Positions 5,891 through 59,334 of a stretch of 64,000 nucleotides of DNA are shown here, in pieces; position 1 is the first letter of the stretch; each line of letters opens with the position of its first letter. The translations under genes and the position numbers were made by a program. Origin of the DNA: Naegleria gruberi (lineage: Eukaryota). The notes below the pieces were generated by a model that worked only from the letters and a program-made list of their open reading frames with translations, had not been told where the DNA came from and searched no databases. The stretch lies in the NCBI GenBank assembly GCA_000004985.1, contig GG738845.1. One strand, given 5' to 3'.

Positions 5891-7368
5891 TTACATTTTC
5901 GGTGTATAATATTTGAATTTGATCGATTTCTTCTTTTTAACAAGTGTACCCTCATTAATAAAATCTCCATACTCATTACCAAGAATATTTACAACCGTGA
6001 CAGGTGTTTGTGGACTCTTTTTGATTTTTGATGGTTTGGAGATTTTCTGAATGGGTTGAGAGTTGTAATTTCTTTGAGGAGTAATAGCGCATTCATCATG
6101 TAAAGATACATCATTCCAAGCATTGTTTTGATTGGACTGAAAATTTGGAACACTTCCAGCAGAAGATACCACTGTTGTGTCTATCTTTGTTATAGATCCT
6201 CTTCTTGTTATATTTCTCGTACTATTTATGACCTGATGTTCATGCTTATCAAANNNNNNNNNNNNNNNNNNNNNNNNNNNNNNNNNNNNNNNNNNNNNNN
6301 NNNNNNNNNNNNNNNNNNNNNNNNNNNNNNNNNNNNNNNNNNNNNNNNNNNNNNNNNNNNNNNNNNNNNNNNNNNNNNNNNNNNNNNNNNNNNNNNNNNN
6401 NNNNNNNNNNNNNNNNNNNNNNNNNNNNNNNNNNNNNNNNNNNNNNNNNNNNNNNNNNNNNNNNNNNNNNNNNNNNNNNNNNNNNNNNNNNNNNNNNNNN
6501 NNNNNNNNNNNNNNNNNNNNNNNNNNNNNNNNNNNNNNNNNNNNNNNNNNNNNNNNNNNNNNNNNNNNNNNNNNNNNNNNNNNNNNNNNNNNNNNNNNNN
6601 NNNNNNNNNNNNNNNNNNNNNNNNNNNNNNNNNNNNNNNNNNNNNNNNNNNNNNNNNNNNNNNNNNNNNNNNNNNNNNNNNNNNNNNNNNNNNNNNNNNN
6701 NNNNNNNNNNNNNNNNNNNNNNNNNNNNATGAGCTATTATTAAGGGATGGACCAAAACGACATGTCGAGCTTGAGGATGGGGAGTTATTAAATTGACAAT
6801 TATTATGTTGAGGGTATTGGCGAGGTGGACTGGAATGGTGGAGAAGGTTATGTTGACTATTCAAATGTATGGAGTGAGCCTGACTTGTATTTGAATTTGG
6901 TGAGTGGAGATCTCCTGAAGAAGGTTCGCTATTGCCATTATTGAACATATGGACTTGAGGTGGAGAGGAAGTATTAAGGTTGTGGAATGAATGTTGTTGG
7001 TGGTGGTAGAATTGGGATTGATTTACATGTGTGGAGGAATGATTAGCAGAGCATGGTGGATTATTGACAGCATGGTTTGACCAGGAGGATGATGATGGAG
7101 GAGTATTAATAGCACTGGAATGTTGTTGAGGATTGTTATGAGTGGATTGGAATGTATTGGTTGGAGACACACAGTGGAACGAAGTGGCTCCTTGTGAGGC
7201 TTGTGATGAAAAAGAAGTTTGTCGTGTTAGTACTGAAGCATTATTGCTGCTCGACGTCGAGAACTTTGTAGTGCTATTCTGAGGAGAAGATCTATGACTG
7301 TAACTGTAGATACTTGTTGTTTGCTGATTAATAATATTATTATTATTATTAAGGTGATTCATTTTCAT
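5891..7368 (-). CDS. Low-complexity Ser/Asn/Gln/His-rich protein (poly-N, poly-Q) of unknown function. The coding region is interrupted by the assembly gap.
   Basis: ORFs 6226..7368 and 5891..6172 are in-line on the minus strand either side of the N-run. Strong compositional bias; no recognisable domain. Confidence 0.45.
6254..6728. other. Assembly gap (475 N)
   Basis: Run of n characters in the sequence. Confidence 1.
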
Positions 7369-8053
7369 ATATAAAAACTTGACTATACTAGTTTGTTAAA
7401 TGTATATTGAAAGCTAGTTCTTGCTTCTTTGCTCAAAGGACCTTAATGATATGCTAAATAACAAAGTATTATTAAAATAGTCAATGTAGTGTTGTTTTTT
7501 TGGAATGAGTGCATCACGCAATCCACACAAGGAAGTACTTCATCCAACAAGAGTCACATGTTCTTCTCTTCATATCAAAAGAATGTGGAGTGATTCATTT
7601 GAGGCGTGACCTTCTTTTTTGCAAAGAGAGAGATGACCCAATAAAGAAAGAATAGCTTGTATAGGATGTGATGAAAATTTGGTACAGATACGTGTAAGGA
7701 AATCATGACCTGCTAATAAGGTTATATAATGGTGTAAATATTAATTGTGTGGTGGCTTTACATATCTGGGTGTGTTGTGTACCTTTCCAAGAAAATAGAG
7801 CGGCCCTACCTCCTCCATACAATATTAAGGAGAAATGAAATACCCATACAAAGGCGTTTGATATTTCCTTATCTGGGCCTTATAACTGAAAATCTGGCTT
7901 GTTTGGATTCTAGTGCCAAGTTCTGATTTTTGTATTTGGAGATGAGCTTACAAATACGGTTCATTGTTTTGTTGTGCATTATTTATTGTCTGTGTCCACT
8001 TCAAAATAACAATGTTAAATTTCTTATATTGCTCAAATGAACGAATTTAATAT

Positions 8054-27102: not shown

Positions 27103-28275
27103 ATGTTGTCTCGTCGTGCCAACATAATGTCGATGAGTATGGGAAAGGCCTTGATCCTTACTGTATTGTTGGTATTGTCCTTGTGCGTTTTGGGTTCGAC
27201 TGCTCAAGATATTTCATCCCTGTTGAGTGCCATTAAGCAACAAACCTCAACAAGTGGTGGCAGTGATTCATCCTTAACCGCCGAGGAAATTAAGAAGGTC
27301 TATGATGAAAAGAGGAAGAATTTGGAAACTCTCAGAAAGACTGAAGTTTCCCTTCTTGCCGTTGAGGAAGCCATCAGGAAGTACGGAAGTAATAATTTAT
27401 TATACAAACAACGTTTGGAAAAATTGAATGAAATCGCTGCTGTTAAACGTGTCCTTCAAAATGAAGTTGCGTCTTTAATGTTCTTGTGTGAGGAAAAGAA
27501 GTGTAATGCTGTCAAGCCAAAGGAGGAACCAAAGCAAACTGTTCAATTGGCACCTGCTGTACCTCCAACTGTCACGGCTCCACAACCTGCTGTTCTAGGT
27601 CAACAAGTTGTTTCATCAGTACCAATGGCTACAATGACTATTGGTCCTATTCCACTTGATGGAGATAGACCTCATCGCAAGAGAAGTGCTCCACCAGCAA
27701 TGAAAAAGGATGATTTCATTGATAGAAAGCAACAAGAGGAAGAAATTGAACAAATTTTCAAACCACCAGTCTCAACACTTTCATTTGGAGAAGACTTCCC
27801 AGGGTTTGATGAACCTCCAATGCCTGAAGAACCTTCCATTCCAGAACCATCTATTCCAGAAACAGGTTTTGGGAAGAAAAAAGTCTCAGGGGCTGTATGG
27901 CCTTTTGAAGAACAAGAAGATGAAATTGTCAAATATTCTTCTCCAACAACTGAATCTGGCCAAACACCAAGAAAATCAAAGAAGGAAATCAGAAAACCTA
28001 CCAAGAAATCAGTTCAAAAGAGACGAGGCAAAAAGGATTATGCCAAACCAGTACAAAATAATTTATTAAATCTATTGAAAAATAAGAAGAATGGAAAGAA
28101 GAAATTCACAAGAAAGTCATCTGGTGGAAAGAAGAAGTCATCTGGAAAAAAGGATCTTTCTCCAAAATCAGCAGGCAAAAAGTCAGCACGTGGAAAGCAA
28201 GTAAAAACTAAATCCACCGAAACTGCTCAAAAAAAAACCAAAAGTGCCAAGAGAAATGGTAAGGCAAAGAATTAA
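27103..28275 (+). CDS. Secreted protein with a signal peptide (LILTVLLVLSLCVLGSTAQ), a Pro-rich middle and a highly lysine-rich C-terminal tail. Unknown function.
   Basis: N-terminal hydrophobic h-region followed by AQ. C-terminal 110 aa are more than 35% Lys (KKSSGKKDLSPKSAGKKSARGKQVKTK...). Confidence 0.55.
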   Translation: MLSRRANIMSMSMGKALILTVLLVLSLCVLGSTAQDISSLLSAIKQQTSTSGGSDSSLTAEEIKKVYDEKRKNLETLRKTEVSLLAVEEAIRKYGSNNLLYKQRLEKLNEIAAVKRVLQNEVASLMFLCEEKKCNAVKPKEEPKQTVQLAPAVPPTVTAPQPAVLGQQVVSSVPMATMTIGPIPLDGDRPHRKRSAPPAMKKDDFIDRKQQEEEIEQIFKPPVSTLSFGEDFPGFDEPPMPEEPSIPEPSIPETGFGKKKVSGAVWPFEEQEDEIVKYSSPTTESGQTPRKSKKEIRKPTKKSVQKRRGKKDYAKPVQNNLLNLLKNKKNGKKKFTRKSSGGKKKSSGKKDLSPKSAGKKSARGKQVKTKSTETAQKKTKSAKRNGKAKN

Positions 28276-43137: not shown

Positions 43138-43726
43138 TAGAGATTGAGTTTTAAAAAGATTGAGTCATGTTTCGATTTGAACAATTTCCTAAAGATTTTC
43201 ATAGGTGTCATTCCAGCTACGTATCGTAAATTAAATTAAAAACAATTTTTTGTAAATAAACTTATTGTCATGCAAAAAATTGCTGAAAAAGTAATTTCAT
43301 CCACTTCTGTAAAATTCTTCAAATAAAGAAGTTTGTCTTAAAATCGCCCTGTCCTCAAAACTTCATTCCTTAACTCCCAATCAATTTAAATCGAATTAAA
43401 TTGAAGCAATAAATTTACAACATTACAATATGTAACTCATCTACAGAAAACTATAATCCACAATTGACTGGATGTTAGATAGGAAAAAAAGAGGATGGGG
43501 ATCCTGTTTCGTACATGATAGGAAAATTTGCCTTGGGACAATTGACTTGCAATTCTTCCTCTTGGTTGTATTCTTTGTTTCACATCGGTCATGTCAACAG
43601 CAGCTTAAAGTCCCAGGCTTGCATTGGAAAAAAACCTAAAAAAAAAATTCTCCAAACACCACAACGAAAGTTAGCTGTTACTGGATTGAAGAAAATCTCC
43701 CATCATCAACACACTAATACAACAAC

Positions 43727-45007
43727 ATGAAGAATACTGCCAGACTTGTTTTGAAGAATTCCTTCAAGCCATCATGTAGATCATTCTCTACTTGCCAAAT
43801 GCAACAAGGTATTTGGGCAGGAGTTAATTATGCTCCTCTCGATGCTATTAAACAATTGACAATTAGTTTTAATCAAGACACTGCACCAAACAAGATTCTC
43901 TTGGGTGAAGGTGTCTATCGTACCAATGAAGGTAAGCCAAAGACACTCCCTTCCGTTAGAGAAGCTGAAAAGATCATCTTTGAAAAGGGTCTCGATCACG
44001 AATATCCACCAGTTACAGGAGTTGTTGATTTCTGCAAGGCAACTCAAAAATTCGCCTTTGGTGAAAACAGTGATAGAATTGCAACTGTTCAATCCATTTC
44101 TGGTACTGGTAGCTTGTGTTTGGCAGCTTGTTATATTAAGAAATTCCTCCCAGCCGACACTAAAGTTTACTTCCCAAATCCAACTTGGGTCAATCACTTT
44201 AACATTTTCCGTGCTCAAGGATTCACTGATGATCGTATCCCAACTTATAGATATTTTGACAAGAAGACTAATGGTATGGATGTTCAAGGTGCTTTAGAAG
44301 ACATTAAGAATGCTCCAGCCAAGTCAGTCATTCTCTTGCACGCTTGTGCTCACAACCCAACTGGTGTTGATCCAACAATGGATACTTGGAAGAAGATTTC
44401 CGATATCTGTAAGGAAAAGCAACACTATGTTTTGTTCGATTCTGCTTATCAAGCTTTTGCTTCTGGTGATGCTAACACTGATGCTCAATCATTCCGTTTG
44501 TTCGTTAAGGAAGGTCATCAAATCATGCTCTGTCAATCATATGCCAAGAACTTTGGTTTGTACGGACAACGTATTGGTGCTTTCAATGTTGTGACTGAAA
44601 ATGCTGAAGAAAAGAAGAATGTTGAAAGTCAACTTGGTATTATCATTCGTACTCAATACAGTAATCCACCTTTGCACGGTGCTAGATTGGTCACAACTGT
44701 TTTGAATACACCAGAATTGAAGGCTCAATGGGAAAAGGATGTTAAGGAATTGGCTGACAGAATTAAATTGATGAGAGCTAAATTGGTTGAAGAATTGAAG
44801 AAGGTCGGAAGCACTCGTGACTGGTCACACATTACCAACCAAATTGGTATGTTCGCCTTCAGTGGTTTGAATGAACAACAAGTTACCAAATTGAAGGAAG
44901 AATACCACATCTACATGACTAAGGACGGTAGAATTAGTATTAGTGGTTTGAACACTAACAATGTTGCTACTGTTGCTAAGGCCATGCACGAAGTTACTAA
45001 GAACTAA
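43727..45007 (+). CDS. Aspartate aminotransferase, mitochondrial type (class-I aminotransferase) with a presequence-like N-terminus
   Basis: PLP-lysine motif SYAKNFGLYGQRIG, NPTG, and AGVNYAPLDAIKQ. 426 aa. Confidence 0.9.
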   Translation: MKNTARLVLKNSFKPSCRSFSTCQMQQGIWAGVNYAPLDAIKQLTISFNQDTAPNKILLGEGVYRTNEGKPKTLPSVREAEKIIFEKGLDHEYPPVTGVVDFCKATQKFAFGENSDRIATVQSISGTGSLCLAACYIKKFLPADTKVYFPNPTWVNHFNIFRAQGFTDDRIPTYRYFDKKTNGMDVQGALEDIKNAPAKSVILLHACAHNPTGVDPTMDTWKKISDICKEKQHYVLFDSAYQAFASGDANTDAQSFRLFVKEGHQIMLCQSYAKNFGLYGQRIGAFNVVTENAEEKKNVESQLGIIIRTQYSNPPLHGARLVTTVLNTPELKAQWEKDVKELADRIKLMRAKLVEELKKVGSTRDWSHITNQIGMFAFSGLNEQQVTKLKEEYHIYMTKDGRISISGLNTNNVATVAKAMHEVTKN

Positions 45008-45169
45008 ATTGTGAATATTATAACACCTTGTACTATTAAATAATACCTTGATAATTTATTTAAATACTATCTCAATTATTTTCATTTTAGCTTTGGAAAC
45101 TTTCAAATGTTCTGACCTTTAGTTTGAAAAATTAAGGGTAATCTTATTATAAAGTACAAGTAGTTAGTT

Positions 45170-47712: not shown

Positions 47713-49546
47713 TTATTGAGTTGGGTAAAAGGAAGGCATTTTCAAAGTGTATGGAACTTTATACTTTTCACACAGGAGACTTGTTACAATTCTGGCAGAT
47801 TCCATGATAGTAGGAAGTCCTGAACCTGGGTGCGTATGACCTCCAGATAAATAGAGATTATCGAGTTCGTCGAATTTGTTTCTAGGTCTAAAAGATAAAC
47901 TCTGGAATAGAGTATTACTCATTGCAAATACTGCTCCAAATTCTATATTCTTCTCACTCTTCCATGTTAATGGTGTTGAAAGTTTACAATCCTCAATATG
48001 ATTTCTCAAATTGGTAAATCCACATTTTTGTTCCAAAATATCAAAGGCAAGTTGCTTGGTCTTTTCAATAGTTTGTTGATCTGTCCAGTCAATTTTGCCA
48101 ACCTGTAAATTTGGAACAAATACCATTACAAATAAACCTGATTTGCCTTCCTTTGATACAGTTTTATCGACAGTACATGAATTTCTTACATAAACACAAA
48201 TATCAGAATTCCAATCTCCATCCTCCATTAATTTGTAACTCTTCTTAATATCTTTAGGGAATGAAATTACATGTGTTGTCACATTATCATATAATTTATC
48301 CAAAGAAAGATACATATTAAATCCACTACAACTAAATTTCTTCTTGTCAAACGTAGATGGTTTCCATGTAGAAAATATTTGATCAGCATTTGGAATATTA
48401 TTCCTTATTACATAGGGTATATCAGCGTTGCAAATAATTTCGTCAAATTCATATCTTGTTGTTTGTTGTGAATTTCCATGTCTCACTTCAATGCTATTAA
48501 TTAAACGTGAACCCTTCTCAATATTGAGCTTTTCTACAGTTGAATCGAGATGAATCTTTGCACCAAATTCATTGGTTAGAATGTTGGCCATTTGTTCTGA
48601 AATTTTAGAAAGTCCACTAATTTTTTGTCAAATTATGACACATCAGACAAAACTATATTACTTACCCCTCGACATGGTATATGCCAAATTGATACTCAGC
48701 ATAGGGTATGAGACCATAAACAGATGGAGCCTGCCATGGACTCATTCCTAAATATTTAGCCTGATATGAAAGGATTATTTGATTCATTGGATTTTTAAAA
48801 TACCTTCTCAACATGGTTGCCATTGATTTATGTAAACCAACATACGGAAGTGCTTTGATAGCATCCCAATTAATAATATCCAAATGTGAAGAATAAATCT
48901 TTTCCAATAATTTCATAGTATAGGGATACCTCTTTTCTTCAAATTTAAGCCACTCATGAAATCCCTTCACAGCATCCTTTCCAAAAACTCTATCAATTTC
49001 ACTCTCCAATGCTTGTCGATGGTCCAAATCGTGACAATCAATGTGAGTCCCATCATGAAAAACAAGTCTATACATGGGATCCAATCGAATAAATTTCAAA
49101 TAATCATCAACATTCCTTCCAGCATCTCTAAAAACAGCTTCCAATATAAATTTCATTATTAACAAGGTTGGTCCTGTATCAAGTGTACTTTCTCCAACTT
49201 GGAGTGGAGCATTTCTACCACCAATCTTGCTTCCTTTTTCAAAAACAGTCACTGGAAAACCCTTTGATGCCAAAATGAGAGCACTAGACAAACCTCCTGG
49301 TCCACCTCCAATAATACCAATACTTGGTTTTCCATTTGTCTTGTTATGATTGGTTGAAGTGTTGATGGATGAATAGTATCGAATGATCGGAGTAGTGAAA
49401 TTATTACTCAATGAATGAAACATTTGAAGGAGACCAACAACCCCTTTACTAGTAGTAGTGTTTGATGAATACTCGGACTCTAAACAACAGCATCCTCTCT
49501 TAGGATTGTTAACAAACAAAGTGGATCTGATTGTTCTCTTTAACAT
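47713..49546 (-). CDS. Phytoene desaturase / carotenoid dehydrogenase (CrtI family, FAD-dependent), about 594 aa, with an approx 75-aa N-terminal extension. Two exons: 48666..49546 and 47713..48616, intron 48617..48665 (GTAAGT...TTAG).
   Basis: FAD dinucleotide fold IGIIGGGPGGLSSA..L...G..V.VFEK. C-terminal NLYLSGGHTHPGSGLPTIMESARIV matches CrtI NLYLVGAGTHPGAGIPGVIGSAKAT. Exons join in phase 2 (..YHVEG|GLSKISEQMA). Confidence 0.8.
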
Positions 49547-49627
49547 TTTTTTTTAATTGATTTTCATCCTTGAACTTAATTGTTGCTATTGGAATTAAAG
49601 CCAAGACTTGTCTTTGAAGAAAAAAAA

Positions 49628-50656
49628 ATGCTCAACAATAGGTTTGATCAAAACCAACCACTCAAACATCGTTCCGTTACAAGTTTGGCGGGAAATTCTT
49701 CCATGCTGCCAACAATACCATCATCGTCAACAACAACAGGAGGATTCTCTATGAATAAGTCTAAATTATTGCCAGTTTCACTGACACATCAAACAAGTAC
49801 TTCTTATTCTGATCAAACTTTTGGAAAGGAAGAAAGAATCAATGAACGATTATTGTCATCATCATTATATAGAAAAAGCGATTTAATTCCGAGCGAGCAA
49901 AATAATATTATTGATACAGAAGTACCACCAGCAGAAAGTATTTTGGATGATGGCGAACCAACAAGATTGACAAAAAGTCTTGCTGCTCATTCTTCTTTTA
50001 TTTTCGGTGGCAAGCCTAGAGATGAAGGAATAATTACAGATTTTATGATGACACCACTATCAATCAAAAACTTGGACAGGAAGAGAAATTTCTCAACACC
50101 AGGTACATTGGAACAATCTGTACTAAAGAGAGGAGTCTTTACATCACCATTGCGAACTGATCCATTCTTTGAAGTTGATGATGACAAGCTTAAAAGTAAT
50201 ATTAATGATATTGTAAAGGAAACAACTTGGGTGACAGTATTTGGATTCCCTCCAAGTAAGGCCTCTTACATTCTCAGACAATTTTCAAATTATGGAATGA
50301 TTATTAATCACAAGATTATGAATGGAAACTTTATGCATATTCAATACAAAGCCAGAATTCAAGCTGATAAAGCTCTAAGCAAAAATGGAAAAGTCTTCGA
50401 TGGAGTTTTAATGGTGGGTGTAGTAGAATGTTTAGATACTGAAATTTTGAGACAATACGAGAAGGAAAAGCGATTGGTTGAAGAAAAATCAAGCAAAAAA
50501 AGAAATATCTCGTCTATATCCAATGATGATGATATTCAATTTAATGGTGGAATCTCATATCGTCATAAATTGGAACTACCACTAGAAAAGAAGAGAAAGC
50601 CAGAGTCTTCGAATTCTTTCTTTTCCAAACTTTTTGATTACGTTTTTAAATTCTAA
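49628..50656 (+). CDS. Nucleoporin Nup35/Nup53 (RRM-like MPPN domain)
   Basis: [54 protein letters not shown]...MVGVVEC compared with human NUP35 [61 protein letters not shown]. Start taken at the first ATG (49628). Confidence 0.85.
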   Translation: [342 protein letters not shown]

Positions 50657-50665
50657 TACAATTCT

Positions 50666-53600
50666 TTATTGTTGTGGTATTGTCTTTAAACTTTCCATTG
50701 TTGTTTCAATAATACTCTTCTTGGTTACAAGGTCTTTAACGCTAGAGGATTTTCTTTGCTTGGCCAATTCTAATTCTTCTCTCTTTGAGGAAACAATCTT
50801 CTTTGATTGATCAAATCTATTTCTAGCCTTTTCTAAATTTTGTTTGATTTCCTTTTCTCTTTTTGTTGCTCTTTCAAGGGAGTTTTTGGCTGCTATTACT
50901 TTCTTGTCTTCAACTACAACAGAATTGTTTGAAACAATAGCATTGGATTGAATAGATTGCTTTGGAGTCTTTTGTAAGTTCAAATCCTTTTGGTTGGCAA
51001 CATCGGCTGGTGTTTCTTGCTTTGCTGAATTTCCCTTTGTCAAGAATTCCAAAAACTTTTCTCTTATTTGGTTCTTTTTCTTGTCCATTTCTTCTCTCAT
51101 GAGCTTTTCTCTGAGAATATATTCCATTCTTCTTCTTTCCTCTTCCATAAAGAATGGTTGCATTGGAGAGCTAAGAACTGGAGAACCAACAACAAGTTGG
51201 GCACCAACAATACCAGAATTTTTTCTACACTTGGATTGCTTCTTTTGGTGTTTCTTGTGTGGTTTCTTCTTTTGAGACTTGGAAATGCTCTTGATAAGCT
51301 TTCTGAGCTTGCAATATGTGCATTTCTTCTTACCTCTCTTTACCTTCTTTGGCTTTTTGTGATGCTTCTTATCTTTCTTAGAACCAGTTGTAATTCTTGT
51401 TTCAATGTTAACAACTCCAATATTACCAGAAACGTTAGTGCTTGTTTGGATTGCAGCTTGTCCTGGTTGAGGATTTGGTTGCACAGGTGGTTGCACAGTT
51501 GGTTGTGCTGGTTGTGCTGTTGGAGGGGTTGATTGTTCCTTATTAACAACATTAGAGTTTGCATTGGCGATTTGTTCAACAATTTTTCTGTACCATTCCT
51601 CTCCACACAATGGATTAAGAGATTCATCTTCAGGTGTAGAACATGAGCTTCTTGGTACACCAATTTCTCCCATAATTGAATCCAATCTCTCAAGATCGCT
51701 TTCTTCAGCCAACATTGGATCTGCACTTACAATAGCTTCAGCCAATTCTCCATATTCAGCGGAAGTTAATGGTTCAACTTCCTTTCCTTCTTTAGCGTCA
51801 GTGAATTCAGTACAGTATGGATTGGCAAGAAGTTCTTCCAAAGTAGAGCACTTTGTTACCTTTGCCACACTATCAGATTTAATTTGGACTGGCTTAACTG
51901 GATCGACTGATTTAGTGTCCTTATTGACTTGCTTTTTGTCCTTCTTAGTATCTGACTTCTTTCCCTTGTTAGCCTTCTTATCAGATTTGGTGTCTTTCTT
52001 GAGATCTTTCTTGTTATCTGATTTCTTTCCCTTATTGTCGGATTTTTTATCCTTCTTATCAGACTTGGTGTCTTTCTTGAGATCCTTCTTGATTGGTTTG
52101 ACTGATTGAGAATTATTAGCATTGGTACCCTTGTTGTCTTTAGACTTTTTATCATTATTGGTTTGCTTGTTAATTGGTTTGATTGGCTTGTTTTCCTTCT
52201 TGTTAACATTCTTATCAGATTTGGTGTCCTTCTTGAGATCCTTCTTGTTAACTGATTTCTTTCCCTTATTGTCGGATTTTTTATCCTTCTTATCAGATTT
52301 GGTGTCTTTCTTGATGTCTGATTTCTTTCCCTTATTGTCAGATTTGGTGTCTTTCTTGGTATCTGATTTCTTTCCCTTGTTGTCCTTGTTGTCCTTGTTG
52401 TCAGATTTGGTATCCTTCTTATCTGATTTGTTGTCCTTCTTGATATCCTTATTGGTTTGCTTATTAATTGGTTTGACGTTCTTGTTATCCTTCTTGTTAA
52501 CCTTCTTATCGGATTTGGTGTCTTTCTTGAGATCCTTCTTGTTATCTGACTTCTTTCCCTTAATGTCTGTATTGTCAGATCTTTTTGGCTGTCTTTCTTG
52601 GTATCTGATTTCTTTCCCTTGTTGTCAGATTTGGAACCCTTCTTATCAGATTTGTTGTCCTTCTTGATATCCTTATTGGTTTGCTTATTAATTGGTTTGA
52701 CGTTCTTGTTATCCTTCTTGTTGTCCTTCTTATCAGATTTGGTACCCTTCTTGAGGTCGTTCTTCTTGTGTGATTTCTTGGTATCCTTCTTAGCAGACTT
52801 GGTCTTATCCTTCTTAGTATCTGACTTCTTTCCCTTGTTAGCCTTCTTATCATATTTGGTGTCTTTCTTGAGATCCTTCTTGTTTTCTGATTTCTTTCCC
52901 CTATTGTCGGATTTGTTATCCTTCTTATCAGATTTGGTATCTGATTTCTTTTCCTTGTTGTCAGACTTTTCTTTCTTTGATTCAGTTTTCTTTTCTTCTG
53001 ACTTCTTTGGTTGTTCTGTCTTTGATTCAGTCTTCTCATCTCCAGTATTTGGGACTGCAGTTTGGATGTCTGTCTTTGGAGTAATATTGTCTTCAGATTT
53101 CTTGCCAATAGCTTGCTTATTTGAGGTTTGAGTCTGGGTAACAATTTCAATACCATTAGCATTTTGAGCACTTGAACTAGACATCATTGTTTTTTCAACA
53201 CCATTGTCAACCTTTGCAGATTGTTTCTTGGATTCATTTGAAACATTAGAGATTGCTGGTTTAATATCAGTCTTGGAATCAGCTGTAGAAGCCTTGCTGT
53301 CATTTGCAGTGGATGATGGCTTGACTTCAGTCTTGGTGTCACTCTTGGAAGGGATATCCATCTTTCTATACCATTGTTCTTTGCACAAAGGATGAGTGTA
53401 ATAACTATCCAAAGATCCACATACATGATCTCTTCCAGAGCTGAGCTTTGAATTAATGGCATACTTTTGTTGTTCGTTTGGACCATAGCTGAGAGATTTG
53501 ACATTCAAAACATTGCAATCACCATCTACATTGAGCTTGCACTTCAAAACATTACCAGAACTAATTGGCTTTTGATTTGGAAGTTCAACTGCAGTTTTCT

Positions 53601-54270
53601 TATCAGATGGAGTAACAACTGCAACGCCAGCCTTCTTTTCAACTTCCTTTGTTGTAATAGTGTTGGCACTATCAGTCTTTGGTTGTTCCTTTCCAGTATT
53701 TGAGTCAAGAATCGTTTTTTTATCAGTAGACTGAGTATTCATTGTTGGAACAGAATTAGTACCGGTAACAACAACTGGAGCGGTTTGAGTTGGAGTGGTT
53801 GTTTGACTGCTTGGAGTAGTTGTTGGTGTTTGAGTAGAGGTTGTTGTGGAGGCAGTACTACCTTGTGTTGTACTGGTTGGAGTGGTCGCAAGAGGAGTGT
53901 TGGTTGTTGAGGGAGTTGTAGTAGTGGTTGGCTTACTAGTCTCTCCTTGTTCCAAAACAACTCTTCTGTATTGCATCTTTCTGTACCATCTCTCCTTACA
54001 CAATGGGTTAGAGTAATAGCCAGAAACTGTGCTACACTTGATGGACTTGCTGCCTGTTGAAGAACGATATTTTGGTATTTCCTTGGGATCATAGGAAAGG
54101 GCCAACTCATCAAGATAAGACACAACACTACAGTCACCATTTCTATTGAGAGTGCAACCTAGGGCCTTATCGCTGCTTCCTTGAGCGAGAGTTTGGGTCA
54201 TTAAAAAGATGACCAAAACAACAAGGGTTGTTAGTTGGGCAAGCTTGCTTTTTAACAACTTTGATTGCAT
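50666..54270 (-). CDS. Large secreted repeat protein (about 1200 aa): signal peptide, three copies of an unrecognised Cys-containing module ending PLCKE(R/Q/E)WYRK, a Thr/Ser-rich mucin-like tract, and about 380 aa of Lys/Asp/Ser-rich tandem repeats. A frameshift falls inside the repeats near 52575..52600.
   Basis: ORF 51856..54270 gives signal peptide LAQLTTLVVLVIFLMTQTLAQG, modules at aa about 38-100 and about 230-295, and a PTS tract. It then changes to an Arg-rich frame of the same DNA repeat. The Lys-rich frame continues without stops into ORF 50666..51868, which carries a third partial module (...LNPLCGEEWYRKI). Confidence 0.6.
51880..53040. repeat. Coding tandem repeat (about 48-81-bp units, AAG/GAT/TCA-rich on the coding strand) encoding KKSDTKKD-type lysine-rich repeats
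   Basis: Recurrent near-identical blocks such as tccttcttatcagatttggtgtctttcttgagatccttcttg at about 51936, 52040, 52200, 52500 and 52840. Antisense L/S/F-rich ORFs in the track are artefacts of this repeat. Confidence 0.8.
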
Positions 54271-54491: not shown

Positions 54492-57400
54492 TTATTGGAA
54501 TAGTCTTCTATTAAGATTTTCCAACAAGTATCTTGGATAGATGGGGGTGCCATTTACAAGAACTGGTGAACGTTGAGGAATGATAGAAGGTTGAGATGGT
54601 GGTTGAATGATTGGAAGTGTTGGTGGTTGAACGGTGGGTCTTTGAATTGGTATTTGAATCCTAGGAATGGATGGCATTTGTGGAGGTAGGATATTTTGTG
54701 TTATAGGGGGAGGAGGAGTTTGAACAGTTGGGATAGGAATCGTTGGAATAATTGGAGTAACGATTGGAGGAGGTTGACTTGGAGTAAAAACCGGTGGATG
54801 TTTCTTTTCAACTTGTTTTGGTTGACTTGGAGGTAACATCTTAATGATAGGAAAAGGATCAGAAGTATAGACAAAATTAGAGAGTGATTCCGGAAGCATC
54901 CATACACCTTTCCAGAAACTTCTTTGTAGAAATCTCTCAGGACTATTATTGAACTCTAAAACAGACCTGGTATAGTGAGGATTATTTGATCTATCGAGTT
55001 GCATCTTGAGGTAGAGTAATTGTAAATCTTTGAAACTTCCGTTCCATGGTACTTCAGGAAACACTGGAGTAGAAGGATGGTTAACCATATTGTCGGATTC
55101 TAACTGTGATCGATTGATATCGAATACTTTCAATGTCAACTTTTCATACTCTCCCTTTTCATTTGCTGTTGTATCAAGTTGTAAGGCATTATCGTCCTTC
55201 AAGTAGTGAGGTGAGACTAGTAATGTAGCTGATTGCTCTGACTTTTCTCTCCATTCTTTAAGCCTTTTAGTCATTGATTCTTCGAATAGTCTTTGGAAAT
55301 ATGTTAATTGGCCAAAGGTAAAGTAATCTAATGGAGATTTTTGTATAATTCCAAACAACGGATCTTCCTTACTCTCCTCCACAGTAATAATATTATTAGT
55401 ATTGTCTGCTGATTTTTTGGAGAATTTTTTCACTATAGCCAACCTCTCCTTCTTGAATAATTTTTGAATATCATGTTGGTGAGATACTATTGAATAGACT
55501 TCATCTTTTGTGAGCTCATTCTTAAAAATATCATGTAGCAGTTTATCCTGTAGAGCTGGATCCGAGTTGTCTAGTTGATTTACCATAATGGATTGAGTAT
55601 AGTTTTCGTAATTATATACCTCTCTAAGTTTTTTTTCATTAGCATCAAGCTTTCTATGCTTTGATAGGAGTTTGGTCTTGTATCTTTGATCAATTCCATT
55701 CTTTTGAATGAATGCTCTTGTTATAACTCGAATTTGATTGTTTTCTTTTTGGTAAGATTCCAATAAAAGTTTAGCTAGCTCAGTGTTGTAATTTTTTGAT
55801 TCTATTGACTTTTTGGAAAGGGCTGTAGAGATGAAAGAGAAGGTTTCTGCGAACTGGGCACTTTGCATCATTCTTAACACAGAGTTGACAACGTTTTCAT
55901 ACGATTCGATTTTGGATTGTTTTCTAAACTCCTTCTCGAATGATATTTTTTCTTTTAGAGTCAATGATTGCCACTCCTTCATTGATGAATCCTTTCTTAC
56001 CATTTGATTATAGTAGGACCTTAGTTTTGAATAGTTTTTGATAGCATCCTGGTGCAATTGTATGATAGAATTTTCAGTACCATTTGGCTTGTAGGAAAGA
56101 ACTTCTCTCCTTTGTTCCCTATTCATTTGGTCGAGTAATTGATCAAGTATTCTGAACTCTCTGTCAATGATTAAATCTCTTTCCAATTCTAGCAAATCTT
56201 GGGTATTCTCCTTGTTTTGTTTTGCTGGTATATTGAGCAATTTGACAGATTGTTGAAAAATTCCTAAACTTTCCAATTTAGATTGTTCGAGTGGTGATAT
56301 TGTGTCGGTATAAATTACATTTTCGAGGCGCTTTCTCTCCTCTTCCAGTTTCTGCTTTAAAGTTTGAAGAGACTTTTTCTCTTCTTCACTTGGCTCGATG
56401 CCTGACAGAGATTTGGTGGCAATATTACTTTCTATTTGTACAACTGTCTGTTCTAGATGAAGTAAGGATATTTTATCAAAGCGTTGCTCTTGTATTTCAC
56501 TAACTCTAGGTAGTATGTTTTTTTGAATCTCTATGGTTTTCATTGTTGGATAAAACAACTTGTTAGCATTAAAATTATCAGGCATATTGGCAAGTTTAGA
56601 GAATTCATTAAATGACTGGTTTAGGCAATCATTTCTTATAGAGTTAATCTCCTTCGCAACATCCAATCCTTTAGAGAGTTGAATTAACTCTCCCTCTTTC
56701 CAAACATTCTCATCAACGGAAAAAGTATTGGAGAGGTAATGAGTTGATGTTGTAGAATTGTTATTCTCCATAATATTTTCACTCACATGTGTCTGAATCA
56801 AAGTATTTTCCTTCTGATTTTGCTCTGATTTCTGTTGAAGGGATTTTTTCCCTTCATTAATAAATGAAAAACTATTATTGAATGTATTTTCTTCCAGTGC
56901 TGAATGTTTAGAATCCTCCCTAACTAATTCATGGTAATATTGTTTGTGGTCTTTTTTCGAGAAGGATTTAGGAGATTTTTCAGTTGAGGTGCTGGAATTA
57001 GTCTTGAAAAATAGGTTTGCTATTTTGCGCGTTTCCATTAGTGCATATTTGGTGGAAATATGACTCTTCTCTACAAGATAAGAATATAATTCACCAAGTT
57101 TGAAAGAGTAGGGAGAAACTTCTGCATTCTCATCTTCGTTTAGTTTGGTACCAAGGGTCCAATCATATTTGTTTCCATCACTTGGGGACACACCAAAAAA
57201 TTTAAATCCAATAGTCGACTTTAGAATGCCATTCTTCAAGTGCTTATACTTATCCGTAAGTGGTGCGAAAATAGGTAATTTCAGCTTGAATAAAGAAGAG
57301 TCTAATCTTGTGATTGGAAGACTTGTTAATTCGTCCAAATTACTCCACTTGGTATCAGACTTGGTTACTTTTTGGAGAGCTCCCAATGAAGATAATTCTC

Positions 57401-59334
57401 GATTTTCAATTTTGGGAGTACTATTTTTCACAGAAAATCCCTTTTCTTCAATCTGCTTTTTGACATCTTTCATTTCTTCATAAGCGTTCTTATTATTTCC
57501 AAAATCTAACGTATTAGATAAACCATTCTTCCAAGAATTTACAGTAATGTTTGCATTTTCATATGTATTCTCTAAGAGGATATCTTTTGAAACAGGCTCT
57601 TCAACAAGCTGAGGTTTAGGTATATTGAACTGATCACTTGGTATTTCAAGTACTCTTGGAGTCTCTGAGTGAGTATTATACACCTCTAATCTTTTCCCAA
57701 TATCCCCAACTAATTCTTCTAATTCTTTCCACTGATCTTCACTCAGATCTTCTAATATGTTTTGGGGTTCCATTTTTTTGGAAGAATCTTTCAAATAGTT
57801 GACAAGATTTTCTATCCACTTGAACTCCTCCTTATTGGTGGCATTAACAAGTTTGATTTCGAGATTCCTCATTTCGTTTTCTATTGCTGTTTTTCTTTCC
57901 TCTAGAGTTGCATCCATAAAGAGACCAGACTCTAGCAGGTAAATAGGAGAAAAATGGTCAACTAGTAAGCTTTCCGCATAACCTGTAGTTCCATATAATA
58001 GCTTTAAAGCCTTTAGTTTGGCAAGAGCATTTCTCTTCTTGTTTCCTGGAATGTTGGTATTAGAAATGTTTGACTTGTTGCCTTCTGCCCATCTAACTTT
58101 CGCAGAGTTCTTTTCATTACTTATTGGGTACAATTCTTTCAAATAATCCGCTTCAGAGCTATCTGTAAGATTTTTTCCAGTATCTGTTTTGAGCTCAAGA
58201 TTATTCTTATCAAGAATGATTTTCCTAATGTAATTTTTAAAATGGATCCAACTCTCTTCTGACATGTCAATACCAAAGAATGTCTCTATTTTTTGTTTTG
58301 TATTGGATATTTGGGAAACAGCCCTTAAAGAGCCTCCATTTTCCAAGTCCCCACCAACTATTATATCTTTCAAGTGTTCATAAAAATTAGTTCCCTCATG
58401 ATACTTATCTATATGTTTTGAGGTAGAGTACACTCTATGAGATTTAGTTATTATTTTTTGCTTGTCTGTTGAAGCAGTAGTTCCATTGGTGGTGCCAGAT
58501 GTGTAATTGCAAATCAATACATCTTTTATGTAGGGGTTGAAAGATTTGGAATTATCTTCCTCATCTGAAGAGTCTCCATTGTTGTTGAGTAAATAGGAAT
58601 CATTGGAAAATTCAGAAACTAAACTTTCCTTGTTTTGAATCTTGTTGATAGATGCTGCTGGTACAATACAGTTCAAGAAATATAGTAGGAGCCGATTTAC
58701 TACACGGTCATACTTGAATTTTGTCTCTTCTACTTTTCTTTAAATGTGAATTAATTTGTGACAGTAACTTACCATCATTCTTTCTAAAAAACAATTTTTT
58801 CTCTTTAGATCCATCACAATCCGAAAATGATACAATCTTCTTTAGCAATTCTCTTTCTTTGTGAGCAATAAAAAGCTCAAGTAAAACTAATTCATCCTCT
58901 TCCTTTTCTAAATCAATTATTTTTCTATTAGCCTCCAACCACTCTCTAAAGGAATCATAAATTATACCCTCCTTCTTTTCTATTTTTTCTTCATTATTTT
59001 CTAAGTTTACAAGTGATGAGTTATTATTTTGATTTGTTAACGTATCATTAATCTTTTCCGATACCAATTCTTCTTTTTGTAATGGCTGATTTTGTTCAGC
59101 AACATTGCCCTTGTTTGATAATTCTTCGAGGAATTTTGAATTTAATTCCTCTCTAATTTTTCCAAAATCAACTCCCGATAGTGATTGATTACCCTTTTGT
59201 TGATTTTCATCATTTTCTAAATCTCCAATAGTCAAATCCTGTATTAATTGTTCGAATAATTCATCATCCTCTTGGGTCCAACTGGATCTTCGGCTTGAAA
59301 TATTTGAATGATGTGGGGCTTCATTATTCATCAT
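54492..59334 (-). CDS. Very large hypothetical protein (about 1590 aa) with a Pro-rich C-terminus. Two exons: 58773..59334 and 54492..58699, intron 58700..58772 (GTAAGT...GTAG).
   Basis: The two supplied ORFs join in phase 1 (...FFRKNDG|VNRLLLYFLNCIVPAAS...). Consistent composition throughout. C-terminal PPVFTPSQPPPIVTPIIPTIPIP tract. No domain recognised. Confidence 0.55.

Follow-up and report, generated by a model that had tools for sequence, protein, structure and literature searches.

Does the minus strand at positions 50666-54270 of a 64,000-nucleotide (nt) window from Naegleria gruberi NEG-M encode one protein, and if so, of what kind? A sequence-only reading of the window had proposed a secreted protein of about 1200 amino acids (aa), made of three copies of an unrecognized four-cysteine module, a mucin-like tract and a Lys-rich tandem array, and spread over three open reading frame (ORF) pieces. 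We find one gene on the minus strand, running from an ATG at 54270 to a stop codon at 50668-50666, with in-frame stops directly upstream of the ATG in a three-frame translation. On balance, and with little more than even confidence, we read it as a single N. gruberi gene for a secreted, modular, multivalent and polycationic glycoprotein of the extracellular matrix or of cell adhesion. The computed mature product is ~130 kDa, with a pI of ~9.8.

The length of about 1200 aa proved right for the gene and wrong for any single ORF. The frame switches once, at 52590-52581, from the frame of 54270 to the frame ending at 50666, and hence two frames are involved rather than three pieces. The ORF of 400 aa listed from 51868 is longer than its entry suggests, its frame staying open upstream as far as 52624; the last upstream stop in this frame is at 52627, leaving 641 codons open. 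Repeats on the two sides of the shift are homologous, and KKSD-type text appears only in the proposed frames. Start-to-start spacings between repeats are multiples of 3, but all become 2 mod 3 when they span the frameshift site. Codon-usage log-likelihoods, trained on six well-supported genes of the window, were +0.37 to +0.57 bits per codon in the proposed frame for four of four segments, and negative in the other frames. For the last 400 non-repetitive codons, the probability of staying open by chance is ~1e-13, and the third module motif, PLCGEEWYRK, is encoded in the downstream part, past the shift. Codon usage, repeat homology and the third module motif thus show that both frames belong to one gene.

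In a repair test, lengthening the A5 run at 52586-52582 by one A produced an uninterrupted ORF of 1,201 aa, and a 2-nt deletion, the alternative repair, gave 1,200 aa. Because the frames form one gene, a single added A restores the ORF and no intron signal is present, the simplest account of the shift is a 1-nt homopolymer indel that arose from an assembly error in the repeat or from a very recent or allelic mutation. Homopolymer runs within repeats are classic spots for assembly errors. When the site is aligned to a sister repeat copy (ACAGCCAAAAAGATCTGACA versus ACACCAAA-----TCTGACA), it contains 5 extra nt; a 6-nt in-frame difference together with the loss of one A in the A-run accounts for the site equally well. 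An intron was considered as the cause of the frame change and rejected. There is no GTAAGT-type signal near 52590, unlike in the real intron of the nearby CrtI-like gene, which served as our local model of a Naegleria intron, and the sole GT...AG pair of suitable length (52637-52567, 71 nt) begins with GTTCCA and is ordinary repeat sequence. Programmed -1 frameshifting on CAAAAAG was considered as well and is no more than a formal possibility. Two splice-donor-like strings lie on the minus strand of the coding region: GTAAGT at 51726-51731, within the acidic insert of module 3, and AG/GTAAC at 51856-51862, which creates the stop of an out-of-frame 804-aa ORF. We judge both to be coincidental, as the surrounding sequence has normal coding composition.

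At its N-terminus the protein reads like a signal peptide (MQSKLLKSKLAQLTTLVVLVIFLMTQTLA/QG), in agreement with the earlier proposal, and nowhere else in the protein does a 19-mer exceed 1.5 on the Kyte-Doolittle scale. Hydropathy of the whole protein gave no transmembrane span and no hydrophobic end of the glycosylphosphatidylinositol (GPI) type. The mucin-like Thr tract had also been correctly identified; judged by composition, it is presumably an O-glycosylated stalk, and a weak 18-nt tandem repeat lies within it at 53783-53837. A Ser/Thr/Lys linker connects module 2 to the Lys-rich array. This array is 39% Lys, has a net charge of +81, and is encoded by ~1.1 kb of 21-24-nt units with higher-order duplications of 156-170 nt. 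Its extent and repetitive nature were as first described, whereas the near-perfect DNA repeats were not: Tandem Repeats Finder (TRF) matches were 61-75% for periods of 21-78 nt, and the best long repeat pairs were 156 nt at 90%, 170 nt at 89% and 64 nt at 97% identity. Further downstream, a very basic patch with three more Cys falls in a segment (aa 961-1020) of net charge +27, and we infer that it may contribute to inter-chain disulfides. The heptad-like C-terminal region is presumably a coiled-coil oligomerization region, to judge from its sequence pattern; the only Pfam match to this region was sub-threshold, to AAA_31.

Four Cys and an ending of the form PLC[KG]E[RQE]WYRK were indeed found in each of the three proposed module copies, with the Cys at residues 39/47/79/91 (copy 1), 244/252/284/296 (copy 2) and 807/819/876/888 (copy 3). 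Copies 1 and 2 are full and have in common the spacing C-x7-C-x31-C-x11-C and the motifs LNxxGDC, LSY and PLCKE[RQ]WYRKM. The spacing of copy 3 is C-x11-C-x56-C-x11-C. Local scores with a hidden Markov model (HMM) were 93 bits for copy 1, 92 bits for copy 2 and 16.5 bits for copy 3 (aa 873-895). Only the last ~24 residues of copy 3, the half comprising Cys3, Cys4 and WYRK, align to a profile of Willaertia copies of the module (hhalign probability 84%, 24 columns). The module pattern in the protein is far beyond chance, and it amounts to two full copies and one half copy, not three.

Relatives of the module were sought by scanning 1.84 billion representative proteins with a module profile in HMMER. 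Seven matches were obtained, of which one was convincing: a Willaertia magna hypothetical protein of 500 aa (KAL9652728.1, P0001; E 1.3e-20). A 90% cluster mate of this protein, KAL9643597.1 (P0008), is a W. magna hypothetical protein of 2,291 aa. Five Willaertia copies can be aligned with copies 1 and 2 over the whole module length, and for module 1 the identity to these is 31-43% (BLASTP E 1e-13 to 1e-07), the best match being to KAL9643597.1 with 43% identity over 65 aa and E 1e-13. The pattern common to Naegleria copies 1 and 2 and the Willaertia copies is C-x7-C-x26-31-C-x11-C; Cys1 is followed by [FRV][ND]G[DE]C, [LV][SG]Y stands midway, and the module closes with LCxxxW[YF]R. KAL9643597.1 begins with a signal peptide, followed by one degenerate and five full module copies with Ser/Pro-rich spacers between them. 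A large teneurin-type EGF array (Pfam E 1e-56) and further extracellular sequence come next, and the C-terminus has one membrane span and an acidic tail, as seen by eye in the sequence rather than computed. Given the strength of the BLASTP matches, the sequence evidence indicates that the module is a real domain family, which in its one other known context lies at the membrane-distal, extracellular end.

The other six matches were rejected because only the last ~25 profile positions match and the Cys pattern is missing. P0002-P0004 and P0007 are very long proteins with many near-identical repeats of ~100 aa ('YQWQ...TWYRR'), unrelated to the module; P0006 ('HPLFDEEWYR' repeats) and P0005 ('HPLCTTTWYNK' repeats) were discarded likewise. 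Two metagenome scans, with Naegleria and Willaertia motif patterns, gave no relatives. A word-indexed homolog search with two module alignments returned nothing. As it missed even the Willaertia proteins whose segments were in the query alignment, negatives from this search are uninformative for short, repetitive queries.

The module was called unrecognized at the outset, and profile searches place it in no known family. An hmmscan of the copies against Pfam-A (E<=1) yielded no family, including Sushi/CCP, EGF and other small disulfide domains; in KAL9643597.1 the module region likewise had no Pfam match, the EGF region being the only part that matches. A search of PDB sequences with the module profile gave nothing at E<=10. 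Two AlphaFold2 runs, from different query copies and alignments of 7-8 sequences, produced the same elements both times, namely a β-hairpin that follows Cys2 and a pair of helices in which Cys3 and Cys4/WYRK lie, with low confidence (pLDDT 65 and 60). Comparison of the module model with PDB folds gave no match, a weak negative in view of the low model quality.

Table 1. Coordinates of the gene, its parts and two neighboring genes (window positions)
Feature	Position	Strand	Evidence or detail
Whole coding region	50666..54270	-	~1,200-1,201 aa once one frameshift is repaired
Start codon and predicted signal peptide (aa 1-29)	54184..54270	-	basic n-region, h-region LTTLVVLVIFLM, c-region TLA/QG
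Module copy 1 (aa 36-102)	53965..54165	-	C-x7-C-x31-C-x11-C; motifs LNxNGDC, LSY, PLCKERWYRK
Thr/Ser/Pro-rich mucin-like tract (aa ~110-180)	53731..53943	-	composition; 43% Thr over residues 106-180
Module copy 2 (aa 242-307)	53350..53547	-	45% identical to copy 1, 68 aa
Lys/Asp/Asn/Ser-rich degenerate tandem array (aa ~421-800, ~380 aa)	51900..53010	-	TRF, repeat search, composition
Frameshift site inside Lys-rich array	52581..52590	-	contains A5 run 52586-52582
Degenerate third module (aa ~804-892)	51584..51859	-	C-x11-C, acidic helical-looking insert, then CSTPEDESLNPLCGEEWYRK
Pro/Gln-rich linker	about 51400-51560	-	precedes basic Cys patch
Very basic patch with three more Cys (KKKCTYCKLRK...QSKCRK)	51221..51382	-	sequence, composition
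Charged helix-prone C-terminal region	50669..51148	-	heptad-like pattern aa ~1114-1172 = 50753-50929
Nup35-type RRM protein gene	49580-50656	+	tail to tail with the target gene
CrtI/phytoene-desaturase-like flavoprotein gene	47713-49546	-	two ORFs separated by one intron
Intron of CrtI-like gene	48592-48661	-	~70 nt, AT-rich, GTAAGT...TTTCAG

A secreted modular protein is supported by the signal-type N-terminus, the even-numbered Cys modules, the Thr-rich tract, the homology to an extracellular repeat and the lack of a membrane anchor. A role at the surface, in the matrix or in adhesion gains indirect support from the position of the module at the extracellular N-terminus of an EGF-rich transmembrane protein in Willaertia. 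In the mechanism we propose, the signal peptide would direct the protein into the secretory pathway. The product would display two folded 4-Cys knobs, probably with two disulfides each, and a degenerate third on long disordered spacers, these being the Thr-rich stalk, probably O-glycosylated, and the 380-residue polycationic Lys/Asp/Asn/Ser repeat. The basic CxxC...C patch and the heptad-rich C-terminus would probably link chains as disulfide-locked multimers. The product could then act as a multivalent extracellular tether or glue, with the modules giving specific binding to some ligand and the Lys-rich tract sticking electrostatically to polyanions such as those on the surface of bacterial prey, in the polysaccharide of the wall or on the substratum. 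A bolder proposal, which we regard as tentative and rather unlikely in its full form, would make the module a new extracellular binding domain of Naegleria and Willaertia only (a lectin, or a domain for recognition of prey or substrate), carried on a stage-specific polycationic glue of the cyst wall or of adhesion whose repeat length varies among strains.

Is the gene already annotated? The ORF at 43727-45007 is 100% identical to the aspartate aminotransferase XP_002683232.1/EFC50488.1 of N. gruberi NEG-M (on a 1.56-Mb scaffold), and EFC50482.1 corresponds to the ORF at 27103-28275. N. gruberi models of the target's neighbor genes are thus present in the protein collection, and a local test shows that a single module would be enough for a protein model to reach E<1e-27 in a library of that size. 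No Naegleria protein was among the matches of the module-profile scan. Taken together, these three observations indicate that the gene appears to be unannotated in the N. gruberi reference proteome. No N. gruberi protein model carries the module, and no annotated N. fowleri homolog of it was detectable in the same scan. The 804-aa ORF and seven C-terminal models beginning with Met were looked up by exact match, and none is present in the collection. A synteny walk outward from the aspartate aminotransferase gene revealed no neighborhood that is conserved in N. fowleri or W. magna, and no ortholog was located by this route. Logan contigs SRR26109363 and SRR26109364 (transcript-like, 1.4 kb) encode a 426-aa aminotransferase and are 91.5% DNA-identical to window positions 43707-45010; at only this level of identity, they indicate that public RNA-seq exists for a close but distinct Naegleria. 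A module-bearing ORF was not found among transcript-like contigs of this close Naegleria, which is weak evidence of low or stage-specific expression.

Several points weigh against our interpretation. In the scan of 1.84 billion proteins, no module protein came from N. gruberi, N. fowleri or transcript-like contigs of a close Naegleria, a result compatible with low, stage-specific or no expression. The module structure models have low confidence, and the heptad scan of the C-terminus is a crude method. Lys-rich low-complexity tracts are also found in nuclear proteins. Finally, the assembly as given carries the frameshift, and its literal product is 804 aa long with an out-of-frame Arg-rich tail.

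This last point leads to the alternative that survives best, although we hold it doubtful: that the frameshift is real and the NEG-M locus is a recently inactivated or truncated gene. The product, of <=804 aa, would comprise the signal peptide, two modules, the Thr tract, half of the Lys array and ~240 aa of out-of-frame Arg-rich sequence, and would be without module 3 and the C-terminal oligomerization region. The shift is, after all, present in the sequence, and its site differs from the sister repeat by 5 nt rather than a single base. A truncated gene would also fit the absence of a module gene model from a library that holds neighboring N. gruberi genes, and the failure to find a transcript-derived ORF from a close Naegleria. 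However, the 641 codons past the shift have stayed open, their usage is of the coding type and they include a conserved Cys motif, so that any inactivation must be very recent. Moreover, the in-frame difference of 6 nt plus one lost A fits the site just as well, and a homopolymer in a repeat is error-prone.

The protein can be compared with several known systems. The closest are the Willaertia proteins KAL9643597.1 and KAL9652728.1, both uncharacterized, which have the same 4-Cys module (C-x-L-x-[FRV]-[ND]-G-[DE]-C...[LV]-[SG]-Y...C-[SG]-[ST]...L-C-x-x-x-W-[YF]-R). As far as can be read from the sequences, the modules also share their arrangement, in tandem behind a signal-like N-terminus with low-complexity spacers between them. 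In Willaertia, however, the modules form the outer end of a type I membrane protein that also has an acidic tail and many EGF domains of the teneurin type, whereas the Naegleria protein has neither EGF domains nor a membrane span and instead carries the Lys-rich array and the heptad-rich C-terminus.

A different resemblance is to amoebozoan cyst-wall lectins. In the Leo(TKH) lectins of the Acanthamoeba castellanii cyst wall, a signal peptide precedes Cys domains separated by a Thr/Lys/His-rich spacer, and those Leo forms that carry the spacer are basic; the Jacob lectins of Entamoeba combine Cys domains with Ser/Thr-rich spacers (PMC6541295). The combination of a signal peptide, small lineage-specific Cys domains and low-complexity spacers is thus common to these lectins and the Naegleria protein. 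The domains themselves differ, with 8 Cys in Leo and 6 in Jacob (PMC6541295) versus 4 here, as do the sizes, ~130 kDa compared to 20-60 kDa. Binding to cellulose or chitin has been demonstrated for Leo and Jacob. The library-wide module-profile scan returned no amoebozoan protein and no relationship to Leo or Jacob. We consider these lectins to be the nearest analogs in design, without homology, and a role in the cyst wall to be one possibility only.

Could the protein then be an encystation-specific structural lectin of the cyst wall or of the ostiole plug, in which 4-Cys modules bind a wall glycopolymer and the Thr- and Lys-rich spacers serve as in Leo(TKH) or Jacob? The layout shared with those lectins (PMC6541295), in which a signal peptide is combined with small Cys domains peculiar to the lineage and with spacers rich in Thr/Lys or Ser/Thr, is consistent with this idea, and stage-specific expression would fit its absence from the transcript-like contigs of a close Naegleria. 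We nevertheless regard it as quite improbable. The searches run gave no similarity in sequence or fold to Leo, Jacob or any carbohydrate-binding module, and the Willaertia module is found on a transmembrane EGF protein rather than a small wall lectin. A related suggestion in the sequence-only reading, that of a spore-coat-like protein to be followed by developmental RNA-seq, presupposes a dictyostelid-type organism. N. gruberi, the host here, makes cysts and flagellates, not spores, and the spore-coat idea therefore falls.

Like mucins, the protein has a Thr/Ser/Pro-rich (PTS) tract flanked by folded Cys-containing domains, plus a signal peptide. Unlike gel-forming mucins, it has no VWD, CysD, C8, TIL or cystine-knot domains according to Pfam; its PTS tract is short, ~70 aa, and the dominant low-complexity element is Lys-rich. 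In COMP, matrilins and tenascin, a coiled coil with Cys beside it joins the chains into extracellular oligomers. Set against this general picture, the CxxC and one more Cys near the heptad-rich segment suggest, by analogy, that the Naegleria chains might form disulfide-locked multimers. There is, however, no sequence similarity to COMP, matrilins or tenascin, none of their domains was found with Pfam, and the Cys patch is ~30-130 residues upstream of the heptad segments.

Two further explanations can be dealt with briefly. Mechanical ORF calling, with its ORFs of 804 and 400 aa, might suggest two or three separate genes or transcripts in the region. We think this very improbable: the downstream frame lacks a Met from the shift up to aa 852, its Cys motif is not preceded by a signal peptide, the array of repeats runs on unbroken through the shift, and no intergenic- or intron-type sequence occurs there. 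Codon usage, repeat homology and the third module join the pieces. That the product is an intracellular, nuclear or nucleolar Lys-rich protein whose N-terminal hydrophobic stretch is not a functional signal peptide is scarcely credible: KKSD/KKD-type polyampholyte tracts and basic patches do occur in nuclear proteins, but the canonical n/h/c signal architecture, the even-numbered Cys modules, the mucin-type Thr-rich tract and the homology to an extracellular Willaertia repeat all argue otherwise.

A large secreted protein, probably real, is added to the N. gruberi gene set, the published models of which appear to be without it. In addition, a small, presumably disulfide-bonded domain is defined that has no Pfam or PDB entry and is common only to Naegleria and Willaertia. 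What is new is this lineage-restricted, undescribed extracellular domain; the architecture is of an ordinary kind. Many orphan secreted repeat proteins occur in protist genomes, and in kind this one is no surprise. To our knowledge, the extracellular matrix of Naegleria, the genus of the pathogen N. fowleri, is almost wholly uncharacterized, as are its adhesion molecules and the proteins of its cyst wall. For this reason, a lineage-specific surface module would be a usable handle for antibodies, localization and binding studies.

The gene lies among ordinary housekeeping genes, which include, besides those in Table 1, genes for a kinase, an actin-related protein and a gamma-tubulin complex component. 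The stop codons of the convergent Nup35-type gene (50656) and of the target gene (50666) are separated by 9 nt, and the 3' untranslated regions of the two genes must therefore overlap. A scan for bacterial promoters and terminators showed no enrichment and is irrelevant to a eukaryote. Directly upstream of the gene, also on the minus strand, is a 1,394-aa ORF (54492-58676) with a Pro-rich C-terminus (PPPITQNILPPQMPSIP...); TTG is given as its start, and none of its Pfam matches exceeds the threshold. Elsewhere in the window, positions 6001-8000 have the lowest G+C (0.28) together with a strong GC skew (+0.32), and this segment overlaps a 380-aa minus-strand ORF at 6226-7368.

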